A stretch of 64,000 nucleotides of DNA from Planctomycetota bacterium (GTDB lineage Bacteria; Planctomycetota; UBA8108; SXIK01), in the NCBI GenBank assembly GCA_965223845.1, contig CBDCXR010000004.1, positions 4,832,001-4,896,000 of the forward strand. Direction: 5' to 3'. The stretch's first letter is position 1, and every line of letters starts with the position of its first letter. Under the pieces are notes generated by a model. The model searched no databases. It saw only the letters and a list, made by a program, of their open reading frames with translations, and was not told where the DNA came from. The translations under genes were made by a program, and so were the position numbers. Below are positions 41,787-55,331 of the stretch, in pieces.

Positions 41787-44594
41787 ATGCCGTTTTGCCG
41801 ATCGTTTCTCTGTGTATCGATCTTCGCCGGCTCAGCGGTGACCGCGTTCGCCGATGGCGACGTCTCATCCGCCGAACGGGAGTTCGCCCGATCCGTTTGG
41901 CCGGTGCTTCAGGCGAAGTGCGCGGCGTGTCACTTCGCTCCCGAGCGAAAGGGCGAGCTCGATCTTTCGTCGCGCGCGGCTCTGCTCCGCGGCGGCGAGA
42001 GCGGGCGTCCCGCGATCGTTCCCGGGAACGCGAGCGCGAGCCCGCTCTACCAGGCCGTAACGTGGGTCTCGCCCGATCTTCGGATGCCGCCGAAGGAGAA
42101 CGACCGCCTTGCGATCGCAGACGTCGTCGCGGTTCGCGCGTGGATCGACGCGGGAGCGCCGTGGCCTTCGGAGGAGCGGCTCGCCGAGCTCCGGCGTGAG
42201 ATCGAACTCGAGGACAACAGCCGCGTGCGTTGGCGGACGAGCGGCGGACTCGCGAGCGAGTGGACGGATCGTCGTTACCGCGCCGAGGATCTCTGGGCGT
42301 ATCACCCGGTCGCGAAGCCGGAAGTTCCGGACGAACCCGGCGCGCACCATCCCGTCGACGCGTTCGTCGCACGCCGCCTCCGCGCGAGCGAAATCGAGCC
42401 CGCTCCGCGTGCGGATCGACGAGCTCTGATTCGGCGCGTCACCTGGAACCTACTCGGTCTCCCGCCGACGCCAGCCGAGGTCGAGGCGTTCGTTACCGAC
42501 TCGGCCCCCGACCGCGAGGCATTCGCCCGCGTCGTCGACCGACTGCTCGCGAGCCCGCACTACGGGGAGCAAGCGGCGCGCCGCTGGCTCGACGTCACCC
42601 GCTACGCCGACACCGCGGGATTCGCGAACGACTACGAGCGACCGAACGCCTGGCGGTATCGCGACTACGTCGTCCGCGCGTTCAACGAAGACAAGCCCTA
42701 CGACCGGTTCGTTCGCGAACAGATCGCGGGCGACGAGATCGATCCGTCAAATCCCGAGCTCCTCGTCGCGACGGGGTTTCTCCGCATGGGGCCGTGGGAG
42801 CAAACAGGAATGAGCGTCGCAAAGGTGACGCGCCAGCAGTTCCTCGACGATGTGACCGAGAGTGTCGGGCAGGTTTTCCTCTCGCAGACCCTTCAGTGCG
42901 CGCGCTGCCACGACCACAAGTTCGATCCGATCCCGACGCGGGACTACTACGGCATCCAGGCGGTCTTCGCGACGACCCAGTTCGCCGAGCGTCCGGCTCC
43001 GTTTCTCGCGAGCGAGAACCGCGCGCGCTTCGAGAGCGAACGCGGTTACCTGGAAAAGCGCATCGCGCGTTACGAGGAGCAGCAGCGCGAGATTCGCGCG
43101 AAGTCCGCGCGGGCCGAAAAAGAGTGGTACAAGGAACGCGGGCGGGAGTTCGCGCCGCGCGCGGAGCTTCGTCGCCGAGGCGTCCCCGAAGACGAGATTG
43201 CACCGCGCCACGTGGGCCTCGACACGAAGGACTTCGGTCTCGAACGCATTTCGCGCAAGAACCTCACGCGCCACCGCTGGGAGCTCGATCGATTTCGTCC
43301 GCTCGCGCTCGCCGTCTACAACGGTGGAACGCGGTCGTTCAACAACGTCTCCAGTCGACTCTCGATGCCCGACAAGCCTCTAGACGAGGGAACGATCGAG
43401 ACGACGAGCATTCTCGGCGGGGGCGATCTCTTCCGCCCCGGCGAGCCGGTCGAGCCGGGAATCCTCAGCGCGGCGAGCCACGCGGCGAATTCGCCGACGC
43501 CCGCGGCAGCCCCGTTCGCCATTCCGACTTCACCCGATGGGAGACGACTCGCGTGGGCGATGTGGCTGACCGATCCGTCGCATCCCCTCACCGCGAGATC
43601 GATCGTCAATCGAGTCTGGCAGTGGAGCTTCGGTCGCGGACTCGCACCGAACGCGAACAACTTCGGTGCGATGGGACAGAAGCCGAGCCATCCGGAGCTG
43701 CTCGATTGGCTCGCCGCGAAATTCGTCGAAGAGGGCTGGTCGATCAAGCGGCTCCAGCGCTTGATCCTCACATCAGACGCTTATTGTCGAAGCTCGATCG
43801 CGCCGCAAGAAACGACTCTGACGAGCGAAGCACGCAGCGCTGGCGAGAGCGCGTACGCGCTCTTCGCGTCGCGTCGCTTGAGTGCAGAAGAACTTTGCGA
43901 TGCGATGATCGCAGCGAGTGGCGAGCTCAACCGCGAGATCGGCGGAATCCCCGTGCGCCCGGACATCCACCTCGAGGTCGCCCTCCAGCCGCGGCAAATC
44001 ATGGGCACGTACGCGCCTGCGTACCAACCCTCGCCGACACCGGCCGAGCGTAATCGCCGGAGAGTCTACGCGATGCGCATCCGCGGTCTCCGCGATCCGC
44101 TACTCAGCGTGTTCAATCAACCGACGCCGCGGACTTCGTGCGAGCAGCGCGAAACGTCGACCGTGACGCCGCAGGTGTTCGCGCTCTTCAACAGTCGCTA
44201 CGTGCACTCGCGTGCGCTCGCGTTCGCAGCTCGGGTTCGTCGCGAGGCGAACGCCGACGAGGACGCGGTCCGTCGCTCCTTCGCGCTCGCTCTCGGCCGC
44301 GCCCCAAGCGAAGACGAACTCGGCGAATCTATGGCGCACTGGATTGCGATGACCGAGATCCACGAATCCGCTCCGGCGGGCCGAAAACCCGCGAGCGAAG
44401 GCGTTCCGACCGAGGTCGTCCGCGAAGCGGTCGAAGAGATGAACGGTGAGCCGTTCACCTACCGCGAGCGTCTCGAGGTCTACGACGACTACGTCCCCGA
44501 TCTTCAGCCAGGCGATGTCGACCCGAAGACCCGAGCGCTCGCCGAGCTGTGCCTCGTCCTTTTCAATTCGAGCGAATTCCTCTACGTGCCATGA
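41787..44594 (+). CDS. Planctomycete cytochrome c / DUF1549 / DUF1553 protein
   Basis: CAACH, WLDVTRYAD, CARCHDHK, NRVWQW, PSHPELLD. Confidence 0.92.
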   Translation: MPFCRSFLCVSIFAGSAVTAFADGDVSSAEREFARSVWPVLQAKCAACHFAPERKGELDLSSRAALLRGGESGRPAIVPGNASASPLYQAVTWVSPDLRMPPKENDRLAIADVVAVRAWIDAGAPWPSEERLAELRREIELEDNSRVRWRTSGGLASEWTDRRYRAEDLWAYHPVAKPEVPDEPGAHHPVDAFVARRLRASEIEPAPRADRRALIRRVTWNLLGLPPTPAEVEAFVTDSAPDREAFARVVDRLLASPHYGEQAARRWLDVTRYADTAGFANDYERPNAWRYRDYVVRAFNEDKPYDRFVREQIAGDEIDPSNPELLVATGFLRMGPWEQTGMSVAKVTRQQFLDDVTESVGQVFLSQTLQCARCHDHKFDPIPTRDYYGIQAVFATTQFAERPAPFLASENRARFESERGYLEKRIARYEEQQREIRAKSARAEKEWYKERGREFAPRAELRRRGVPEDEIAPRHVGLDTKDFGLERISRKNLTRHRWELDRFRPLALAVYNGGTRSFNNVSSRLSMPDKPLDEGTIETTSILGGGDLFRPGEPVEPGILSAASHAANSPTPAAAPFAIPTSPDGRRLAWAMWLTDPSHPLTARSIVNRVWQWSFGRGLAPNANNFGAMGQKPSHPELLDWLAAKFVEEGWSIKRLQRLILTSDAYCRSSIAPQETTLTSEARSAGESAYALFASRRLSAEELCDAMIAASGELNREIGGIPVRPDIHLEVALQPRQIMGTYAPAYQPSPTPAERNRRRVYAMRIRGLRDPLLSVFNQPTPRTSCEQRETSTVTPQVFALFNSRYVHSRALAFAARVRREANADEDAVRRSFALALGRAPSEDELGESMAHWIAMTEIHESAPAGRKPASEGVPTEVVREAVEEMNGEPFTYRERLEVYDDYVPDLQPGDVDPKTRALAELCLVLFNSSEFLYVP

Positions 44595-46063
44595 ACGACT
44601 CAACCCGACGAGCAGAGCGAGCGTGGAGCGCGAATCTTCGCCGCCGAGAGTTTCTCTACGGGACGGCCGCCGGATTCGGCAGCGTCGCACTGACGGCCCT
44701 GCTCGCCGCTGAGGAGGCTCAGAAGGAAACCGGCTCGTCCGCCGCCGGGAAGGCTCCCGAGGGATCGAGCGGAACAACGACGACGAATCCCGGACACGTG
44801 AACGCTCGGGCGAAGTCCTGCATCTTCCTCATGATGGAGGGCGGGCCGAGTCATATCGACACGTTCGACCCGAAGCCGACGCTCCGCGATCTCCACCTCC
44901 GCCGCTTCGTTCGGAAGGGCGAAGCGAAGTCGGCGATGGAGAGCGGAACGCGCTATTTCGTCGAGAGTCCGTTCCGCTTTCGAAAAGCGGGCGAGAGCGG
45001 CGCCGATTTCGCAGAGAATTGGGTGCACCTCGCGAACGTCGCCGACGACATCTGTTTCTATCGCGGATGCCAGGGTGAGTCGGTGAACCATCCGACGGCG
45101 CTCTACCACATGAACACCGGGAACCGCTTCGGCGGCGATCCCGCGATCGGCTCGTGGGTGACGTACGGGCTCGGCTCGGAGAACTCCGATCTTCCGGGGT
45201 TCATCGTTCTTCCCGAGCTCGCCTATCCGCAGGGCGGACCGGCGAACTGGTCGAACGGCTTCCTTCCCGCGGTTTACCAGGGAACGCCGCTGCGACCGGA
45301 AGGATCGCCGATCCTCGATCTCGCACCGCCGGCGGGAGTCACACGCGAGGTGCAGCGACGGAATCTCGATTTCCTCGCGAAGCTGAACGAACGCCATCTC
45401 GCGCGCACTCCCGACCGCGACGACCTCGCGGCGCGGATCGCGAACTACGAGCTGGCGTTCCGCATGCAGCTCCAGGTGCCGGGGATCCTCGACCTCGGCG
45501 CGGAGAGCGAAGCGACGCGAGAGCTCTACGGCGTCGGCGAAGCGTCGACGGACAAGTTCGCCCGGAAATGCCTTCTAGCGCGTCGCCTCATCGAACGGGG
45601 CGTGCGCTTCGTTCAGCTCTACGCGGGGACGTGGGACTCTCACGACTATATCGCGCGGAATCACGCCGCACTCATGCGAGCGGTCGATCGGCCGATCGCG
45701 GCGCTCCTCATCGACCTCAAGCAGCGCGGCCTCCTCGACGACACGCTGGTCGTCTGGTGCGGCGAGTTCGGGCGGAGTCCGGACAACGGCATCCGCGGCG
45801 GGACCGCGTACGGCCGCGACCACAACCCGAAGGCGATGCCGATGTGGTTTGCCGGCGGCGGCGTGAACGCCGGTCACACGATCGGCGCGACGGACGAGAC
45901 GGGCGCCGAAGCGATCGACGTCGTCCGCCCGATCCGCGACGTTCACGTCACGCTGCTCCAACTTCTCGGGCTCGACGACAACCGGCTCACCTACTTCCAC
46001 TCCGGGCGCTACAAGCAGCTCTCGCAGTTCGGCGGGGAGGTGATCGGGGAGCTGTTGGCGTAG
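44591..46063 (+). CDS. DUF1501 protein
   Basis: ATGA overlap; RRREFL; MEGGPSHIDTFDPKP, ARRLIERGVRF, EFGRSP. Confidence 0.92.
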   Translation: MNDSTRRAERAWSANLRRREFLYGTAAGFGSVALTALLAAEEAQKETGSSAAGKAPEGSSGTTTTNPGHVNARAKSCIFLMMEGGPSHIDTFDPKPTLRDLHLRRFVRKGEAKSAMESGTRYFVESPFRFRKAGESGADFAENWVHLANVADDICFYRGCQGESVNHPTALYHMNTGNRFGGDPAIGSWVTYGLGSENSDLPGFIVLPELAYPQGGPANWSNGFLPAVYQGTPLRPEGSPILDLAPPAGVTREVQRRNLDFLAKLNERHLARTPDRDDLAARIANYELAFRMQLQVPGILDLGAESEATRELYGVGEASTDKFARKCLLARRLIERGVRFVQLYAGTWDSHDYIARNHAALMRAVDRPIAALLIDLKQRGLLDDTLVVWCGEFGRSPDNGIRGGTAYGRDHNPKAMPMWFAGGGVNAGHTIGATDETGAEAIDVVRPIRDVHVTLLQLLGLDDNRLTYFHSGRYKQLSQFGGEVIGELLA

Positions 46064-46091: not shown

Positions 46092-49000
46092 TCACCGCTC
46101 GAGCGTCCGCAAGAGCTCGATCCGATCGAACTGAGCGAGCCCCCCCATCGCCGTCGGTGCGATCCCCGTCAGCGTGAACGATCCGTTGTCCTTCCACAGG
46201 TCGACGGTGACGACCGTCCAGTCGTTCGGCGATTCTTCCGCGACGCGCTTCGCCTCCCACTTCGTCGTGTTCTTCCCGCTGTAGTAGCGACGCTGCGGAC
46301 TTTCCGCCGCCGGCCAGCGACCGCTCGCCGCGAGCTCGACCATGACGCCGTCACCCGTCGGATTCTTCCACGCGAGGCGAAGGTAGCGGTACTCGCCCGG
46401 CTCGGGTCTCTCCGCGATCGAGTAACTCCAGTTGCGAATCTGCGCGGAGTAGCGCTGGGGCGGCGTCACGGCGAGAGAACGCGTTCCCGATGGCGCTTCG
46501 CCCGCGACGATCTTCGCACGACCACCACCGTCTTTCAGAAGCGACGGAAACTCGTCCTCCTCGTCGAAGAGGACGACCGAGCCGGGAAGCTCGTCGCCGA
46601 AGGCCGAGCGGAGATGCGCGATGAGGTCGGCGATGTCCTTCGGACCGAGGAGATCGCGGAAGTTATCCGGCATGAGCGAGATCGGCGAAACGCTCATCGA
46701 TTCGATGTTCCGCCGGAGAAAGGACTCCTCGACCCCGTCCTTGAGACGAATCGTAACGCTCGTCGCCGACTCGGACGCGAGGACGCCGCTCGCGACCCGC
46801 CCGTCCTCCGTGGTCACCGTGTACGCGGCGTAACCGTCGGTGATCTGGCGACTCGGCGCGAGGATGTCCGCGAGTAGCGTTAGATCCGCCCGCTCTCGCT
46901 CCGAGGCGATGTCTGGTCCGACCGCGTGCCCTTCTTCGCCCACGCGGTGGCAGGGTAGGCAGTGCTTGCGAAAATGCGCCGCGCCGCGCTCGGCATCGCG
47001 TTCGCCTTCGAGCGCATTCACGTAGCGCGAATAGACATCGTCGGCGATTTCACCGGTCTTTTCGGTGCGTTCGAAAACACGGCGCGCTCGAGCGCGCAAC
47101 TTTTTGTCGGTGTGCTCGACGAGCTGCACGCGGCGAAACTCCCGCAGCGCAATCGGCGGCACCGCGTCGTTCTCGAGCGCGTCGAGCAGCGCAGGGAGAC
47201 GGTTCGCTCGCGCGAAAATCGCCTCGAGCGCCGCCTCGGCGACCTGCGGCGAGTACGACTCGAAGCGCCGAACAAGCACGGAACCGACGGCGTCGTCGTC
47301 TGCGGTCGAAAGCGCGGCGATCGCGGCGAGCTGAAGTGCGACGGGCACGCGCGGCTCGAGGAGCTTCTCGCACGCATCGCGCTTGGTCGCGAACGGCGCG
47401 TGAGCGAGGAGCCTCGCCGATGCGAGCCGTTCGTCGAGGCTGCGCTCGGAGTCGAGCGCCGTTCTCTCCGCGTGAGAGAAGGTCTCGCTCAGCTCCTTGG
47501 AGTCTCTCAAGTCGAGCGTGCCGACAACCTCGAACGCCGCCTCGCGAACATCGGGGGAAACCGACTTGAGTAGCGAACTGAGGGCACTCATCGCGCTCTT
47601 CTGCGTGAAGAGATCTCTCGCCCCACGCTTCAATCCCTCGGTAAGCCCGCGCAGCCCTTCGAGTTGAATAGATCTCTTCGCCGGGTCGCGGATGCGCTCG
47701 AATAGATTCAGAGCCGCTTCGACCTCTCCGCGCGTTCGACGGGCACCGATCGTCTGCGCGAGAAGCGAAACGACTCGCACGCACTCGCCCGGATCGTCGC
47801 GCTCGATCAGCCGCCGGAGAAGCGGAAGGGCGACGTGGGTCGACGAGCTGGCGATCGCAGCGGCCATCCAATTCTCGTTCCCGTGCTTCGCGGCGAGCTC
47901 GGCGAGCGCCCGGGACGCACGCGCGTCCCGCGATTCGCCGAGCGTGAGCGCGAGCTGGAGGCGGACACTCGGATCAGAATCGCGAACGAGCTCGAGCGCG
48001 CGAGCGAGAATCTCCGGATCGTCGCCGATTCGTTCGTTCGCGAGTCGGAGGGCGTACCGGCGGACGCCCCAGTGGGCATCGCGGAGCGCACTCACGACGT
48101 CGCTCGACTCGAGGGACCTGAGCCCGGCAAGCGTGGCGAGAGCTGCGAGCCGTGCCTGCGGCGTTTCGCCTCGACTCGCTCGTTCGGCGAGCGGTGCGCG
48201 TGCGCCGAGAGATCGCCGCTCGATGAGAAGTCGTCGTGCGGCTTCCCGCCACCAAACGTTTGAGTCACCGGTCAGCTGGACGAGCGCGTCGTCGCTCGCG
48301 GAACCGAGCTTCGGCGTCCTAGCTGGGGGAGCATCGCGGTGTCGAACGCGCCAGATCCTTCCCTTCGTGTTCCCCTCCGCAAGTCCGTACTGTTGCTGCA
48401 GGAACCGCGGGATCGCCGAGTAGTCTTCGATGATTTCGCGGTACATATCGACGACGTAGAGCCCGCCGTCCGGCCCGATCGCGAGGCTGTTCGGCCGAAA
48501 CCACTTCTCGCTCGAGGCGAGGAACTCGCGGTCTCGCTCATCGGGCGCGCGCCGCACTCGGTAGCCGGCTCCGTCGCGTTCGAGAATCGAGCGGTGGACG
48601 ATGTTGTTCTGCGGCTCACACGCGAAGTGATTGCCGAGATACTCGGAGGGAAAACCGTCGGCGCTGTAGATGAGCGGACTGCACGCCGACGTGAAAAGGC
48701 CGCTCGGCGTCGCTTCGTGACTGCCGTAGAAGCGAACCCAATTCGGATCCGCGCCCCGCTTTGCTCGCCAGGGATGCGGCGCGCTGATCGGGAAGATGCG
48801 CGAGTAGTTCGACGCGCCGGCGTCGCTTTTCGGTGACGGGACGTAGGGGTTGCGAAGAAGCGATCGATACGGAAGCGGCGCAGCGAAGTACGCGTGATTG
48901 CTTCCCGTGATGAGGAATCGGTCGCCAAAGTCGGTGAACCCGATGCCGAAGGTTCCGCTCCCGGCGGTTACCGGTTCGAGCGCACTTCCGTCGGGCCGGA

Positions 49001-49721
49001 TGCGGAAGTCGCTGCTCCCGAGCGAGACGGGCGTCCCAAGCTTGGGCCCTCGGATGGTGCCGCCGTGACCGCGCGCGATGTAAATCCAATTGTCGAGCCC
49101 CCAACGCGGAGAGTTGATTCCGCGTTCGAGCGGACCGAGACCAAAGCCGGAGAACATCGTCTCGCGCACCTCGGCGACATCGTCACCGTCGCGATCGGCG
49201 AGGAAGACGATGTCCGGCGCGCAAGTCACGATGAGTCCGCCGCGGGCCGGAAGAATCCCGTAGCAGGGCGGGAGTCGATCGGCCCAAACGTGCGCTCGGT
49301 CCATGCGGCCGTCGCCGTCGGTGTCCTCGAGTCGCTTCACCGTCCCATAGGTATCTTTCGCCGCGGCCTTCTTCGCTTCGGGCGGAGCCTGAATCCGCCG
49401 TACGGTGCGGTCGAGCTCTCCCGTCTTATTGAGCTCCTCGACATCGAGATGCCCCTCGAGGTTGTAACCGTGGAGCTCGCACACGAAGAGTCGACCGTTT
49501 TCGTCCCACGCAACGCCCGTCGGGTCCGCGATGAGGGGCTCGCTAGCGACGAGATCGATCTCGAAGCCGTCCTTGAGCCGGAAGAACTCTCGGCTCTTCT
49601 CGGGCGACGAAGGCTGAGGAGCGTCCGCTGCCCGTTCGATCTGTGCGGGGAGACGATGCCAGACTCCGGACACGATCGTCACGGCGATCGCGGCCAAGAC
49701 GAGAAAGATCCGCTCAGTCAT
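46092..49721 (-). CDS. PVC-type heme-binding CxxCH protein (putative membrane-bound dehydrogenase propeller + HEAT repeats + cytochrome c)
   Basis: Signal peptide; LVASEPLIADP, LEDTDGDGRMD, WGLDNWIY, FRP..GPDGGLYVVDMYR, CLPCH..GPD. Confidence 0.9.
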   Translation of the reverse strand: MTERIFLVLAAIAVTIVSGVWHRLPAQIERAADAPQPSSPEKSREFFRLKDGFEIDLVASEPLIADPTGVAWDENGRLFVCELHGYNLEGHLDVEELNKTGELDRTVRRIQAPPEAKKAAAKDTYGTVKRLEDTDGDGRMDRAHVWADRLPPCYGILPARGGLIVTCAPDIVFLADRDGDDVAEVRETMFSGFGLGPLERGINSPRWGLDNWIYIARGHGGTIRGPKLGTPVSLGSSDFRIRPDGSALEPVTAGSGTFGIGFTDFGDRFLITGSNHAYFAAPLPYRSLLRNPYVPSPKSDAGASNYSRIFPISAPHPWRAKRGADPNWVRFYGSHEATPSGLFTSACSPLIYSADGFPSEYLGNHFACEPQNNIVHRSILERDGAGYRVRRAPDERDREFLASSEKWFRPNSLAIGPDGGLYVVDMYREIIEDYSAIPRFLQQQYGLAEGNTKGRIWRVRHRDAPPARTPKLGSASDDALVQLTGDSNVWWREAARRLLIERRSLGARAPLAERASRGETPQARLAALATLAGLRSLESSDVVSALRDAHWGVRRYALRLANERIGDDPEILARALELVRDSDPSVRLQLALTLGESRDARASRALAELAAKHGNENWMAAAIASSSTHVALPLLRRLIERDDPGECVRVVSLLAQTIGARRTRGEVEAALNLFERIRDPAKRSIQLEGLRGLTEGLKRGARDLFTQKSAMSALSSLLKSVSPDVREAAFEVVGTLDLRDSKELSETFSHAERTALDSERSLDERLASARLLAHAPFATKRDACEKLLEPRVPVALQLAAIAALSTADDDAVGSVLVRRFESYSPQVAEAALEAIFARANRLPALLDALENDAVPPIALREFRRVQLVEHTDKKLRARARRVFERTEKTGEIADDVYSRYVNALEGERDAERGAAHFRKHCLPCHRVGEEGHAVGPDIASERERADLTLLADILAPSRQITDGYAAYTVTTEDGRVASGVLASESATSVTIRLKDGVEESFLRRNIESMSVSPISLMPDNFRDLLGPKDIADLIAHLRSAFGDELPGSVVLFDEEDEFPSLLKDGGGRAKIVAGEAPSGTRSLAVTPPQRYSAQIRNWSYSIAERPEPGEYRYLRLAWKNPTGDGVMVELAASGRWPAAESPQRRYYSGKNTTKWEAKRVAEESPNDWTVVTVDLWKDNGSFTLTGIAPTAMGGLAQFDRIELLRTLER
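48766..49660. repeat. Direct repeat copy 1 (895 bp)
   Basis: Matches 51778-52672 at a constant offset of 3012; differences seen only at 48927/51939 and 49043/52055. Confidence 0.95.
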
Positions 49722-49979
49722 GGAGAAAACCGATCGAAGTTTGCGGCGAGCGAAATCGCCGTTTCTGGCCCCAACACGGATCGGGTCGCGACGCCGCCCT
49801 CGGCAATCCCTCTCCCAAAAATCTCCGATATGGGAAGCGAGAAACACCGCACACAATCGATCCAGAAAAACGGCATTTATCTGTAGGCAACCATGCGTAC
49901 ACTACCTCTAAGGGGAGGTCGCAAATTCCGGCGAGCGTCGAGAAACACGCTCTCAAGATCGATGAAGGAGGCTTTAATT

Positions 49980-50861
49980 ATGTCCTTACTTCACGGATTC
50001 TATGAAAAGCTATCGAAAACAACCACTGGTGGCGAGCGAGCAGAAAAGCTCATCTACAGCAAGAAGTTCTGCGAGCACTGGAACGCCAAAAAACAAGTAG
50101 CCGCAGCGGCTGCCCAACTGATGCAAAAGCTTGAACTCACAGCCTTGACAGTGCCGGAAGGAAGTAGCGCATCAGCAATTTATGAAGAATACGTAACCAA
50201 ACGAAATGATTTACGGCCTCTTACTATTTACACTAACAATTGCGACGTTCTGCTTCACCGGACACTCGGAGAGAGCGAATCGTACGTCGAGACCTTAGAT
50301 ATTCGTATGGCTCCGGGAAAGGTCCGCGCGCGCTCCGGAGCGATTCTTGGCCAACAAACAGATGATTGGTTCTCCAAGAACATTCACGGACTATGCTTGC
50401 TCCCAGTTTCTGCATTCCACTGGGATCAGGGCCCCTGCGCTAGAGACCCCAAAGCGCGAAATATCAAGAGGCGCATTCTTGAACTCGCAGAGAATCTCCT
50501 TCTCGTGCTCGACAGTCAGAAAATGCGGAAGAACATCCTTCCGTTTCTCACACACGTAGCAGATCGAAGCGAGTGGAAAAACTGGATCAACGGGCGGTAC
50601 AACCGAAACATGTGGGTCGTGACAACGCTTAGTCCTCGAATCCATGAGCACTGGGAGTCAAGTGACGACCCGCTATGCGCAATTCGTCAATTGACGCTCG
50701 ATGAAGACGAGAAGAAAGAGCTAGCCTGCCTTGAGGAGATATGGGCGATCCTGACAAATCGGTCTCTATTGGGCAAGAAGAACGGTAAGAACAGGGCAAA
50801 GTCCAAGCGCGCTCATGATCCCACGGATCGACTAATAATCGCAGGTCCGCATTCCGCTTAA
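49980..50861 (+). CDS. Low-GC gene: DeoR/GlpR C-terminal (sugar-phosphate sensor)-like domain without an HTH
   Basis: AGGAGG before ATG 49980; AKKQVAAAAAQL, EGSS, LTIYTNN, PGKVR..GAILG, IKRRILELAENLLLVLDSQK track the DeoRC consensus; sampled lines 40-47% GC. Confidence 0.7.
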   Translation: MSLLHGFYEKLSKTTTGGERAEKLIYSKKFCEHWNAKKQVAAAAAQLMQKLELTALTVPEGSSASAIYEEYVTKRNDLRPLTIYTNNCDVLLHRTLGESESYVETLDIRMAPGKVRARSGAILGQQTDDWFSKNIHGLCLLPVSAFHWDQGPCARDPKARNIKRRILELAENLLLVLDSQKMRKNILPFLTHVADRSEWKNWINGRYNRNMWVVTTLSPRIHEHWESSDDPLCAIRQLTLDEDEKKELACLEEIWAILTNRSLLGKKNGKNRAKSKRAHDPTDRLIIAGPHSA

Positions 50862-51084
50862 TCAATTCGCTACGATCCCTCGATGCCAACAAGACGACAC
50901 GGAGAGAGCGTCCCTCGCGGAGTCGTCGGCAGACACCGAGCGTGGAAACTTGGGCGAAAGTGACCGAAGGAATCCAGCCCGAACGACGACTCTCATTGAC
51001 CTCGATCCTTGCGGCTATCCCGCATCGATTAGGCGATCTCTTTTCGCGGGCGCTCGAACACAACGAGCGCCCGCGAAAATGCGA

Positions 51085-51240
51085 TTAGTCCTCCTTCCGC
51101 AAGTGACGCGAGAGGAATCGATTGGTTCGACGTACAAATGCATCCCGAGCGGCTTGACGAGGCAGTCGCCGCCGTAGGGCGCGCCTCCTCGTCCGACCGC
51201 GACGCAGCAGAGCCCCCCGTCTTCGCGCATCACGACACAT
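51085..51240 (-). CDS. Putative 51-aa arginine-rich peptide
   Basis: CAGGAGGG 8 nt before ATG 51240; 20/51 Arg; could be an off-frame artefact. Confidence 0.3.
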   Translation of the reverse strand: MCRDARRRGALLRRGRTRRRALRRRLPRQAARDAFVRRTNRFLSRHLRKED

Positions 51241-51302
51241 AGGCGTAGCCCTCCTGAGCACCTCAAAACTCTTGGAAAGACACAGCCGAACAAGCCGACC
51301 GA

Positions 51303-51515
51303 TCAATCGTCTTCGAACATGTCCGCGTCTTCGAACGCAGAAGGGTCGTGCCCGAAGACTCGTCGGAGGCCTGCGACCTCTTCCTTGAGCTGGGACATTA
51401 CGTCGAGAAGATCCCGGACGCTGCCGGAACTCACCTCAGCTGGTCGCGCACCTCGAGCGATCTCGTCGAGCATCCACGCAGGTACGGCCGAACCGGATCG
51501 TTGGGGTCGCTTCAT
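51303..51515 (-). CDS. Small hypothetical protein (70 aa, short coiled coil, acidic tail)
   Basis: GGAGGA before ATG 51515; protein-like composition; ends FEDADMFEDD. Confidence 0.5.
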   Translation of the reverse strand: MKRPQRSGSAVPAWMLDEIARGARPAEVSSGSVRDLLDVMSQLKEEVAGLRRVFGHDPSAFEDADMFEDD

Positions 51516-51725
51516 AGCTCTACTCCTCCGAACTCGACGCTCCGAGGAACGGGCCGCCGTGGCGGCCGAAAGGGTCGCACGCGTGCACGAGTTCCTCGGA
51601 CCATTCCGAGCAAACCCGGCTGCGCGCAACGGAGGAGGAAGATTAGCCGGTGTGTTGCGCGATAACCGGCGAGACTGTCGCGATAAGCGACGACGGCGAG
51701 CGCCAACCTTCCTCAGTGGGAAGAG

Positions 51726-51753
51726 AGTTTACGCAAACATCTCCGATTGTCAA
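51726..51753 (-). promoter_or_regulatory. Sigma70-like promoter
   Basis: Minus strand TTGACA-N16-TAAACT, rare in this GC background. Confidence 0.6.
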
Positions 51754-52733
51754 GACTCTTTCGACTCACGAGCCGAACGCCAGGGATGCGGCGCGCTGAT
51801 CGGGAAGATGCGCGAGTAGTTCGACGCGCCGGCGTCGCTTTTCGGTGACGGGACGTAGGGGTTGCGAAGAAGCGATCGATACGGAAGCGGCGCAGCGAAG
51901 TACGCGTGATTGCTTCCCGTGATGAGGAATCGGTCGCCGAAGTCGGTGAACCCGATGCCGAAGGTTCCGCTCCCGGCGGTTACCGGTTCGAGCGCACTTC
52001 CGTCGGGCCGGATGCGGAAGTCGCTGCTCCCGAGCGAGACGGGCGTCCCAAGCTCGGGCCCTCGGATGGTGCCGCCGTGACCGCGCGCGATGTAAATCCA
52101 ATTGTCGAGCCCCCAACGCGGAGAGTTGATTCCGCGTTCGAGCGGACCGAGACCAAAGCCGGAGAACATCGTCTCGCGCACCTCGGCGACATCGTCACCG
52201 TCGCGATCGGCGAGGAAGACGATGTCCGGCGCGCAAGTCACGATGAGTCCGCCGCGGGCCGGAAGAATCCCGTAGCAGGGCGGGAGTCGATCGGCCCAAA
52301 CGTGCGCTCGGTCCATGCGGCCGTCGCCGTCGGTGTCCTCGAGTCGCTTCACCGTCCCATAGGTATCTTTCGCCGCGGCCTTCTTCGCTTCGGGCGGAGC
52401 CTGAATCCGCCGTACGGTGCGGTCGAGCTCTCCCGTCTTATTGAGCTCCTCGACATCGAGATGCCCCTCGAGGTTGTAACCGTGGAGCTCGCACACGAAG
52501 AGTCGACCGTTTTCGTCCCACGCAACGCCCGTCGGGTCCGCGATGAGGGGCTCGCTAGCGACGAGATCGATCTCGAAGCCGTCCTTGAGCCGGAAGAACT
52601 CTCGGCTCTTCTCGGGCGACGAAGGCTGAGGAGCGTCCGCTGCCCGTTCGATCTGTGCGGGGAGACGATGCCCCGGGCCGAACGCGATCGCAGCCGCGAT
52701 TGCGACCGAGGCGAAACAACGGCGAGTCGTCAT
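51750..52733 (-). pseudogene. Truncated 5' duplicate (327 aa) of the PVC heme protein gene with a different signal peptide
   Basis: Identical to the N-terminus of 46092-49721 apart from the signal peptide and one K/E change; breaks at HPWR, then 8 unrelated codons and TGA. Confidence 0.85.
51778..52672. repeat. Direct repeat copy 2 (895 bp)
   Basis: See copy 1 at 48766-49660. Confidence 0.95.
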
Positions 52734-53032
52734 GGAGAAAATCGATCCGTTCCAGGGCTGAATCGAGGACCCACGGCTCGGACGAACCCGTCCGCGAGTC
52801 GCGAACAGCGCCAGTGGCACCTGCGACCGGAGATTAAGGATCGACGCCGGGCGCGCGTAGACGAGTCGCCCGTCGCTTTCTCCGGCGCCGCAGAGTTCGT
52901 CCACCTCCTTGAAGGCGGTGACTGGGTCGCCTCTAGGCTTCGAGTGCGACCGAATGCATCGTAGCACGCGCCGGATCGACGAACACGCGAGACGAACGAG
53001 CCGCACGGGTTCGGAAGAGACCACTCGAATCG

Positions 53033-54106
53033 TCAACCAGCCGGTCGACGTCCTGCGACGAGCCTGATTCCGCACCCGACGACGATGATCACCAGAAGCG
53101 TGAGCGCCCCCGGGGTCAACGCGGGAACTCGGCGATCTGCCGCTTCCGCCGGCACGAGCGCGTCGTGGGCGTCCGTCGTACTGAAACCCTGGCTCGGAGC
53201 GCCGCCCGGAATGTGGATGCGGATGCCGACGACCGCCGCGCCGATTCCGTGGCGCGGGTTGGGCATCGGGGCGCGCTCCTCCCATTCGTCCTTCGCGGGG
53301 TCGTACACCTCGACTTCGGAGAAGATGCCGCGGGCGTTCTCCGGATTGCCCTCCCCGCCGAACACGAACATCTTTCCCGCGAACGCGGCTGCGGCGATGC
53401 CGGCTCGCTTTGTCGGAAGCGGAGCGAGCTCCGTCCACTCTCCCGTCGTGGGATTGAAACTCTCTAGCGCGCCGCCGGAGAGCGCACCCGCACGCCCTCC
53501 CGCGGCGTAGATGATTCCGCCGATCGCGACGGCCGCCAGGTGATTGCGAGCCGTCGGCATCTCGGTGAGCACCTCCCAGGCATCGACCGCAGGATCGTAC
53601 ACTTCGAGATCCGCGAAGCTCAGCGCTCCGCTCTGTCCTCCGGCGGCGTAGATCTTGCCGCCCGCAGTAGCAACCCCCATGGCGCCACGCGCGCGATTCA
53701 GCGAAGCGACCGGCTCCCACTCTCCGGACTCAGGCGAAAACGCGAACACCGTATCCACACCGCGGAAGGTGCTGTTCAGTCCCCCGATCGCGTACACCCG
53801 CCCCGCCGCCGACGCGGCCCCGACGTGATGGAGCCGAACGTCGTCGGGGAGCGGCGCGATCACTTCCCATTCGTTCGTTCGGACGCTGAAACGTTCGACC
53901 GCACCTACCGCAGCTCGGTTTTCCGCGATTCCGCCGATCACGTAGATTTCGCCATCGAGCTCGGCGACGCCGACTTCCTGGCGCGGCTCCGGGAGGGGCG
54001 GCAGATCGACCCAGTCGTCGGTCGTTCCCCGGCTCGGTACTCCGATCCAGCCGATCAAGAGTGCTGCGCAAAACCCGACACGAGCAGACGTAGGTTCATC
54101 GAGCAT
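53033..54106 (-). CDS. Secreted Kelch-repeat propeller with IPTL-CTERM-like anchor
   Basis: Six IYxxGG..VExY..W kelch repeats; C-terminal VPAL + TM helix + RR. Confidence 0.85.
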   Translation of the reverse strand: MLDEPTSARVGFCAALLIGWIGVPSRGTTDDWVDLPPLPEPRQEVGVAELDGEIYVIGGIAENRAAVGAVERFSVRTNEWEVIAPLPDDVRLHHVGAASAAGRVYAIGGLNSTFRGVDTVFAFSPESGEWEPVASLNRARGAMGVATAGGKIYAAGGQSGALSFADLEVYDPAVDAWEVLTEMPTARNHLAAVAIGGIIYAAGGRAGALSGGALESFNPTTGEWTELAPLPTKRAGIAAAAFAGKMFVFGGEGNPENARGIFSEVEVYDPAKDEWEERAPMPNPRHGIGAAVVGIRIHIPGGAPSQGFSTTDAHDALVPAEAADRRVPALTPGALTLLVIIVVGCGIRLVAGRRPAG

Positions 54107-54716
54107 CGGAATCCCGCCTTCTCTAGTCGCAGATTGTCCTCGAGCGCTCGGGGAGACGAATCGAAGCGCGCGCGGGAAGCGGCCGCATCGTTCGACTCAC
54201 GTCGACTCTCCGGCCGCGGATTCGCCTGGCTCGACTTTCAACGCCTGAGTTTCGCGAGTCAAGTTTCGTTCGGACGGAGATCGCGAAGAATTCATCCGCA
54301 GCCCGGTACGTTCGGCCGCCATGAACGCAAACATCATTCGCGCGGCTTACTTCGATCGTTCGGAGAGCAGGTGCGAAGGAACTAGGACCATGAGCTGATC
54401 GATGCCGACGCGACGGCGTGGTGCGCTGAGATCAACCCCGTTCTCGAGTCGGTCGAGGCCGCGACCGATGGCGAGAGAGTTCGGACCGGGCGTCCGGGAC
54501 TCGAGAAGCGGGTCTCCCAGGTGTCGATCGGTACACAACCCGTTTCACCCGTCCGCGGCCTGCTCTTACCGCGTAAGATCGACGTCGCGCTGCGACTGCG
54601 AGCGCGCGTCACGTGGAGGAGTTCATGTGCCGCGACGGGAAAGGGTCGTCATCAGCGGTGACTTGAGCGTCACGAAATTCCTAACGCCAACGGGTTCAAA
54701 AGGGTTCGAGGTCGCA

Positions 54717-55331
54717 ATGGCAGCCACGCGGGTACAGGCCATATTCGCAAGCGAGGCGCCGGTTGGATTGGTATTTTGTCGCGGGCCGAGTGACTGGTGG
54801 CAGCTCTTTCTGTGGAAGACTCGTCGCGACGAATTCGAAGCGGGGGCATGGTTTCGTGGGGTGCTTCGACCTCAACTCTGTGACTTGTCCTCCGACGGCA
54901 AACTCTTCGTTTACGCAGCGACCAAATTCCGGCGAAGTAAGGGGGAGCCGCCACGAAGCTGGACGGCCGTAAGCCGACCGCCGTGGATCAGCCCTCTCGT
55001 CGCGTGGGAGAACTGCGGATCGTGGACGGGAGGAGGAAAGTTCACTTCGAATCGTCGACTGCTCGTCGACGCCGAAGGTCCCGTCCAGCGAGGTTCCGTC
55101 GGCTGCCTCGAGGTCGAGTACGGCGACGCCCCGATGCATCAGCCGCGAAATCCCGCCGCCGCGACCGAAGACGGTGCGGACTGGATCAGCCGGGATCCCA
55201 GTGACTCGATCGTGTTCTCTCGCGGCGGCGCTCTCTACCGCCGGAGCTCGATCGGGGTAAGACTCATCCGCGAGTTCCCGGAGAAGATCCCCGACCCCAG
55301 GCCCCCTCCAAGTCATGCGACTCACTGGTAG
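54717..55331 (+). CDS. Hypothetical Trp-rich protein
   Basis: GAGG before ATG 54717; RGPSxW..GAWFRG..CDLSSDG..WTAVSRPPW..WTGGG. Confidence 0.65.
   Translation: MAATRVQAIFASEAPVGLVFCRGPSDWWQLFLWKTRRDEFEAGAWFRGVLRPQLCDLSSDGKLFVYAATKFRRSKGEPPRSWTAVSRPPWISPLVAWENCGSWTGGGKFTSNRRLLVDAEGPVQRGSVGCLEVEYGDAPMHQPRNPAAATEDGADWISRDPSDSIVFSRGGALYRRSSIGVRLIREFPEKIPDPRPPPSHATHW

Follow-up and report, generated by a model that had tools for sequence, protein, structure and literature searches.

A candidate insertion with long target duplication in a haem-protein gene of a planctomycete chromosome

Insertion with long target duplication, reportedly first described by Nobusato et al. in 2000, is the closest described counterpart of a structure that we found in a 64,000-nucleotide stretch of the chromosome of a Planctomycetota bacterium (contig CBDCXR010000004.1, positions 4,832,001 to 4,896,000; hereafter designated the window, to which coordinates refer unless marked otherwise). 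There, the 5′ part of a minus-strand gene for a haem-binding protein occurs twice, as long direct repeats on either side of about 2 kb of DNA of unusual composition, one copy of the gene being whole and the other cut short. Integration into a protein-coding gene is known also from phage 21 and e14, which enter icd of Escherichia coli and carry a replacement for the gene end. In the account of Furuta, Abe & Kobayashi (2010, PMC2853133), insertion with long target duplication is documented for restriction-modification genes in Helicobacter, Haemophilus, Neisseria, Campylobacter, Burkholderia, and others, and the cases set out in that account show long direct target duplications of ~30 to ~420 bp and no mobility genes. 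Two further processes bear on the way in which such a structure could arise, namely, integration with one homologous and one illegitimate end, as outlined in PMC3240628, and integration of a donor fragment across sister chromatids, which makes a tandem duplication and is presented as a tested model by Johnston et al. (2013, PMC3784515).

Among the criteria of the class are direct repeats of >30 bp (PMC2853133), an insert of <20 kb, absence of a mobility gene, and a repeat that is unique. On these testable points, the present locus has a repeat of 895–970 bp, an insert of 2042 bp, no mobility gene among the open reading frames (ORFs) between the two copies, and a repeat found nowhere else in the assembly. 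We interpret the structure as a recent duplicative insertion of foreign DNA belonging to this class and probably anchored by homology at the gene start, with a probability of roughly 0.55.

Anatomy of the duplicated gene head and the inserted segment

A position-by-position comparison gave direct repeats at 48766–49660 and 51778–52672, which are 895 bp long, lie at an offset of 3012 bp, and differ by two mismatches only (893/895), exactly as the initial annotation of the window had claimed; a repeat search of the region recovered the same pair, with its first 300 nucleotides (nt) displayed. The parts of the locus on which the argument depends are as follows (start contexts read GTCATGGAGAAAA[C/T]CGATC).

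46092–49721, minus strand: whole gene, 1209 amino acids (aa); DUF7133, HEAT repeats, and CxxCH domain; leader L1 (MTERIFLVLAAIAVTIVSGVW)
48766–49660, minus strand: repeat copy A, 895 bp; codons 21–318 plus two bases of codon 319 of the whole gene
49661–49716, minus strand: leader patch L1, 56 bp; 31/56 identical to L2, no indel
49717–49735, minus strand: start context copy A, 19 bp, made up of the start codon, 14 nt upstream, and 2 nt downstream; 18/19 identical to copy B
49736–51777, no strand: inserted segment F, 2042 bp; guanine-plus-cytosine (GC) content 0.554
51750–52733, minus strand: cut gene copy, 327 aa; leader L2 (MTTRRCFASVAIAAAIAFGPG), DUF7133 profile positions 1–249 of 385
51778–52672, minus strand: repeat copy B, 895 bp
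52673–52728, minus strand: leader patch L2, delimited by comparison at offset 3012
52729–52747, minus strand: start context copy B, delimited by the same comparison
52748–53032, minus strand: upstream region U2, GC 0.656, host-like; between the cut copy and a Kelch-repeat gene

The mismatch at 49043 (T/C) makes codon 227 AAG (Lys) in the whole copy and GAG (Glu) in the cut copy, and that at 48927 (A/G) is synonymous (codon 265, TTT/TTC). Relatives aligned at codon 227 carry Lys or Arg in three cases and Gly in one; the unusual Glu 227 of the cut copy would fit, if weakly, relaxed constraint there. Past the repeat, the two copies stay in register, with 31/56 identical positions over 49661–49716 and 52673–52728, followed by 18/19 over 49717–49735 and 52729–52747, inside which both start codons lie at the same offset, and identity then drops to the chance level. 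The duplicated stretch thus counted is 895 bp, or 970 bp with the leader and start context. On the other side, the similarity ends abruptly at 48765/51777, and this end of the repeat is also exactly where the upstream ORF is cut and where the unrelated insert begins. The upstream copy had been described as broken at HPWR and the downstream one as full length; indeed, the former continues after HPWR with eight unrelated residues and a stop (SARESKES*), ending at 327 aa, against 1209 aa with complete domains in the latter. The two signal peptides, already noticed to have diverged, and the two ATGs at the 3012-bp offset with their common start context also proved to be as first described.

The repeat corresponds to the 5′ part of a minus-strand gene of the DUF7133 / PVC-type haem-binding CxxCH type. 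DUF7133 is complete in the whole copy (PF23500, profile 1–385 of 385, 363 bits; cut-off, 27), which further matched TIGR02604 (PVC-type haem-binding protein, 235 bits; cut-off, 122) and TIGR02603 (cytochrome c / CxxCH haem-binding domain, 116 bits; cut-off, 68), and is a 'PVC-type haem-binding' / 'membrane-bound dehydrogenase-like' protein of the kind common in Planctomycetota. The assembly comprises 7.93 Mb in four contigs, and the locus lies deep inside the 7.87-Mb contig. Within the whole assembly, the repeat has two copies only and the insert a single one, neither of them matching the three small contigs, and other paralogues of the gene in the genome reach at most 34–37% aa identity. Since the two heads are identical at 893/895 positions, against this low level for all paralogues, both must derive recently from a single resident sequence.

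The leaders L1 and L2 differ at 25/56 bases without indel and in the same frame, and eight of their codons keep the same residue, five of the eight differing at synonymous sites. When 353 other signal-like leaders of the genome were compared in frame, the null mean was 19 (standard deviation, 3.8) against the 31/56 observed, and a score of 31 was attained in 1/353 and 2/353 of the leader comparisons and in 0.14% of random pairs; on this statistical ground, L1 and L2 are probably deeply diverged homologues. The 19-bp start context is not kept in orthologues, where the best agreement was 12/19 (n = 25 with an assignable start), and it was not visible as a motif in a further set of relatives; in the genome it occurs at these two sites, plus one chance-like 17/19 match that heads no gene. 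As aligned, the diverged leader reads as a patch with near-identical DNA on either side. A search of the genome for a source of either leader gave short chance matches only. Hypermutation of the leader by a diversity-generating retroelement, or directed at adenines, was considered and rejected: every kind of change is represented among the 25 differences, the ORFs scanned at the locus included no member of a reverse transcriptase family, and the genome contains no template copy. By eye, L2, with Thr-Arg-Arg-Cys-Phe and a weakly hydrophobic, Ala-rich core, resembles what we take to be a twin-arginine signal, and L1, with one Arg and a strongly hydrophobic core, resembles a Sec signal or anchor; twin-arginine and other signal models gave no match to either 60-aa N-terminus.

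The segment between the copies, which had been noted earlier as foreign-looking, has a GC content of 0.554, compared with a chromosome mean of 0.653 (standard deviation, 0.021), and only 25 of the 15,426 2-kb chromosome windows are as low, placing it in the lowest 0.16%. Its cargo ORF is lower still, at 0.503 (7/35,766 windows as low), and has a GC content at third codon positions (GC3) of 0.55 vs 0.76–0.81 in the neighbouring genes. The insert is compositionally foreign. Four features were distinguished in it.

49980–50861, plus strand: cargo ORF, 293 aa; DeoR C-terminal sensor domain only
51041–51079, no strand: inverted repeat, perfect over 16 bp with a 7-nt loop; between the convergent insert ORFs
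51303–51515, minus strand: possible small ORF, 70 aa (108 aa from an upstream start)
51726–51753, minus strand: promoter-like site, TTGACA, 16-nt spacer, TAAACT; 10/12, a consensus match only

The cargo ORF has GAAGGAGG located 8 nt upstream of its ATG, and profile searches found no DNA-binding domain in it. Among 5.8 billion proteins it has one relative, at 32% identity; as several motifs are common to both, the cargo ORF represents a real but tiny family. A protein atlas gave a weak DeoR-C lead only (score, 0.78), PHROGs a weak regulator match only, and PADLOC nothing, and the mean predicted local distance difference test (pLDDT) value of the predicted fold was 32. The 70-aa ORF shows a coding-like pattern of GC by codon position (0.73/0.46/0.63) and no relatives among 1.84 billion representatives. 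The hairpin at 51041–51079 has its T run on the wrong side for a classical terminator. The promoter-like site shares bases with the stop codon of the cut copy and points towards the 70-aa ORF, and two weak promoter-like matches were located within the insert on its minus strand.

Searches for functions that could move or maintain the segment were negative. Neither an integrase nor a transposase family was recognized in the ORFs between the copies (Pfam, NCBIfam, PHROGs, and PADLOC) or in 16 further ORFs scanned over 29–64 kb, in line with what had been claimed for the interval between the copies; the same family searches found no replication gene in the 3012-bp unit. Pfam, NCBIfam, and PADLOC revealed no methyltransferase, nuclease, or defence family in the insert, which also contained no Rfam family and did not match plasmid and phage DNA collections. 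No inverted repeats of at least 30 nt were present in 46–56 kb and none at the insert ends, and no tRNA was found at the locus as a target. A transposon or insertion sequence was rejected on the lack of terminal inverted repeats and of a transposase and on the single copy of the insert, and a site-specific integrative element on the lack of a tyrosine or serine recombinase in the insert or the 16 nearby ORFs and of a tRNA target. U2 has no similarity to the insert. When the insert ends were compared with the native flanks, three of four comparisons were at chance; the fourth, a gapped and GC-rich match of 24 bp, was discarded, being equalled by 7/1396 random native pieces.

Origin of the structure

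We infer the following course for a duplicative insertion at this locus. About 2.0–2.1 kb of foreign DNA would have entered, containing the ORF with only the DeoR C-terminal domain, the possible small ORF, and, at one end, either a gene start and leader of its own or none. One end would have been joined illegitimately just after codon 318 (HPWR), and the other at the gene start; this second join would have been made at the 19-bp start context, or else directly behind the leader under the guidance of homology. With the joins 895–970 bp apart and in the 'wrong' order on the target, the stretch between them would be doubled, as expected if the ends joined two sister chromosomes or if the fragment was circularised and then crossed in. 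Two variants may be envisaged. In one, the start context and L1 would have come with the fragment from a related lineage, and a crossover directly behind the leader would have doubled 895 bp; in the other, 970 bp would have been doubled, and a diverged homologue would have supplied a short tract that took the place of the leader patch in one copy. The initial annotation had likewise proposed an integrase-free insertion, by homologous recombination of incoming DNA that brought its own promoter and leader. Foreign composition and the lack of a mobility gene support the insertion itself, and the whole copy does lie behind insert DNA and a different leader, whereas homologous recombination is one of several compatible routes, and simple Campbell integration of a diverged donor is excluded by the 99.8% identity of the heads.

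Several observations weigh against our interpretation. The nearest relative of the gene among the 5.8 billion proteins has 62% aa identity; 40 related genomes gave full-length matches of 46–52% aa and short fragments of up to 66%, and the species representatives, for which 80 loci were kept, a nearest match of 66% aa over the gene head. No protein of the same species was found in the protein collections, including metagenome data, by the whole-gene and cargo searches. The upstream neighbours of the nearest orthologues match neither the Kelch gene and U2 nor the insert, and an upstream extension of homology in one relative proved to be spurious. An unoccupied site was found neither in the 40 related genomes nor among the 5.8 billion proteins or the species representatives, so that the term 'insertion' rests on composition and anatomy. 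Moreover, a plain target duplication does not account for the 56-bp leader patch: since this patch lies between the 18/19 context, which is unconserved in orthologues, and the 895-bp repeat, what is needed is a second event, in which a diverged homologue supplied a short tract, or else a donor whose allele was mosaic. The likeness of L1 and L2 is just moderately above chance for unrelated signal-like leaders of the genome. The GC3 of L1 is host-like (0.85 over 20 codons), unlike that of the cargo ORF, and the insert would therefore be composite. Finally, the repeats of 895–970 bp are longer than the ~30 to ~420 bp of the cases set out in PMC2853133, and the cargo is not of the restriction-modification kind that mostly forms the published cargo; restriction-modification cargo was, however, a criterion of the published screen and not of the mechanism.

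One alternative is a Campbell-type integration, in which a 3012-bp circle from a strain of the same species, containing the insert and the first 970 bp of the allele of that strain, from the start context through L1 to the head as far as HPWR, would have entered by one crossover in the head. A single crossover yields exactly the order of U2 with L2 and the cut head, the cargo, and L1 with the whole gene, and also explains the 19-bp context common to both copies; identity over 895 bp suffices, and indeed is ample, for RecA recombination. The donor would nevertheless need an identity of about 99.8% over 895 bp and of 18/19 positions in the context, yet a difference of 45% over the 56-bp leader, a requirement that only shifts the leader puzzle to the donor, and a diverged donor is excluded because the heads would then differ. 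The assembly holds no circle, plasmid, or second allele, its three small contigs being without a match, and the circle itself would lack a replication gene as judged by the family searches. Considering both sides, we regard such an integration as unlikely. We are similarly doubtful of an older partial duplication whose copies were kept near-identical by gene conversion with the leader outside the converted tract, a possibility that had also been raised in the initial annotation. The sharp drop in identity at 49660/49661, past which the in-register similarity goes on, looks like a tract edge, and a mosaic tandem duplication of HEAT and Kelch genes in the same chromosome (see below) suggests active recombination between nearby copies. 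The DNA past the leader, however, is again identical at 18/19 positions in a context unconserved in 25 orthologues, which makes the leader a patch flanked by near-identity and not an unconverted remainder behind a one-sided boundary, and this weakens the proposal. Conversion would moreover require a pre-existing high identity, point mutation cannot give 25/56 differences beside 2/895, and the insert is compositionally foreign regardless.

An assembly artefact, with two strain variants falsely joined in tandem or a repeat resolved wrongly, looks very unlikely. An odd 15-kb contig (GC 0.48) in the assembly means that the culture may be impure. Against this, the position of the locus deep in a 7.87-Mb contig suggests reads much longer than the 4-kb structure, the copies differ at two positions and have four distinct flanks, the junction between cut head and insert must exist in real molecules for any assembler to yield it, and the assembly contains no alternative contig for the locus. 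Still less credible, in our judgement, is a 3012-bp unit that acts as an integrase-free mobile 'promoter + leader' cassette homing by homology on the resident gene head. If this were true, the cassette would leave and re-enter through the 0.9-kb repeats, toggling the haem protein between two promoters and its export between twin-arginine-like and Sec-like, with the DeoR-sensor-like cargo tied to the choice. Regulated excision and re-integration of the unit as a programmed switch between two promoters and two export signals, or as a mobile cassette under such control, is the most improbable proposal of all. The leaders do differ in kind by eye, L2 being twin-arginine-like and L1 strongly hydrophobic, and the common 19-bp context is imaginable as a recombination core. 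That context, however, is confined to the two sites and the chance-like 17/19 match, no family model bore out the reading of the N-termini, and neither the insert nor the 16 ORFs over 29–64 kb provide a recombinase. Proteins with haem c are normally exported unfolded, through Sec. The excised circle would have no maintenance function, and the genome contains no second cassette. The possible one-step genetic switch suggested in the initial annotation found no support: it is only a formal consequence of any direct repeat, and the circle would be without replication or integration functions, making the change one-way. We saw no evidence of a programmed switch at the locus, and the structure looks like a recombination scar of a known kind.

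If the duplicative insertion is accepted, U2, the native upstream region, would now drive only the cut, probably useless 327-aa fragment with L2, and the whole gene would stand behind insert DNA with L1, although read-through from upstream would also be possible. The gene would have been rewired in one step, the intact copy gaining a new upstream region and export signal and the dead copy retaining the old ones. Recombination of the RecA type between the repeats could reverse the change, with the loss of 3012 bp leaving one whole gene with U2 and L2; the excised circle, having no visible maintenance or integration function, would presumably be lost and the reversal be one-way. Unequal exchange between the repeats could instead amplify the unit.

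Surroundings of the locus and other local duplications

The locus is surrounded by ordinary planctomycete DNA encoding PSCyt/PSD and DUF1501 proteins, a Kelch protein, transporters, and a sulfatase. The gene next to U2 is the following.

53033–54106, minus strand: Kelch-repeat gene, adjoining U2

Beyond it, a 309-aa ORF (54402–55331; GC3, 0.69), situated within a stretch where GC dips to 0.58, matched no family in Pfam, NCBIfam, PHROGs, or PADLOC. The whole gene itself has a tail of ~170 residues past the haem-binding domain (46092–46620), which was matched in few relatives, over its full length in one genome (G016), as a fragment in another (G014), and weakly in two loci (L039 and L067). The own record of the 1209-aa protein was absent from its matches in the 5.8 billion proteins, and that of the cargo ORF was present among the latter's matches. 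Downstream, the link to DUF1501 was the sole neighbour link kept, in two loci (L043 and L107): the PSCyt/PSD and DUF1501 pair (41787–46063 in the window) adjoins the orthologue in these two distant relatives, lying upstream and codirectional in one and convergent, as in the window, in the other. This recurrence hints at a functional link between the PSCyt/PSD and DUF1501 families and the DUF7133 family.

None of the other kb-scale local repeats of the chromosome brackets low-GC DNA in a like manner, save one member of a multicopy family. At C4:7276563-7283313, a two-gene unit encoding a HEAT-repeat protein and a Kelch protein is duplicated in tandem, with 99.9% identity between the HEAT genes (1091 bp) and 94.6% between the Kelch genes (1818 bp); the pair is a mosaic, with 75–100% identity per 100 bp, and its spacers and Kelch 5′ ends are unrelated. 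At C4:1831810-1834245, two direct copies of 1188 bp, 99.75% identical and 60 bp apart, represent a further recent local duplication; the ORFs translated from it look as if read in the wrong frame. The small contig C1 (1-15005), whose GC content is 0.48 as against 0.65 for the genome, may derive from another organism or a foreign element. Genes for a PAS histidine kinase, a periplasmic binding protein, and two DUF4386 proteins lie on it together with a short integrase-like ORF, and it has no match to the insert.

Comparison with known insertion systems

With published insertions with long target duplication, the locus has in common a few kb of DNA of odd composition, the lack of an integrase or transposase, and direct repeats that greatly exceed the target duplications of transposons in length and consist of ordinary resident sequence unique in the genome. 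It differs from them in that the doubling of the 5′ part of a gene has left a cut and a whole copy, of which the latter has a different 56-bp leader, and in that the published cases are defined by an unoccupied site, whereas the present locus is a candidate by composition and anatomy. One end anchored by homology and the other illegitimate, as proposed for the present insert, would also be the arrangement of homology-facilitated illegitimate recombination as outlined in PMC3240628. Transformation-induced merodiploidy, as modelled in PMC3784515, likewise involves interchromatid integration and yields a tandem duplication with repeats at its borders, in which one copy of the gene is intact and the other disrupted; the duplications given there span 100–900 kb on pre-existing repeats, whereas that at the present locus spans 3 kb, and the same mechanism would apply here by analogy.

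The resemblance to phage 21 and e14 lies in an insert within a gene, beside which stand a displaced partial copy and an intact, partly replaced gene whose end has diverged. Those elements, however, rely on an integrase together with a short attachment core, and the gene end that they replace is the 3′ one; in contrast, the present locus shows no integrase among the ORFs scanned, has a 0.9-kb near-identical repeat, and involves the 5′ end. If our interpretation is correct, the locus would be a clean and unusually long planctomycete case of the enzyme-free entry of foreign DNA, and would extend, to a non-defence cargo and a new phylum, a phenomenon reported chiefly for restriction-modification genes.

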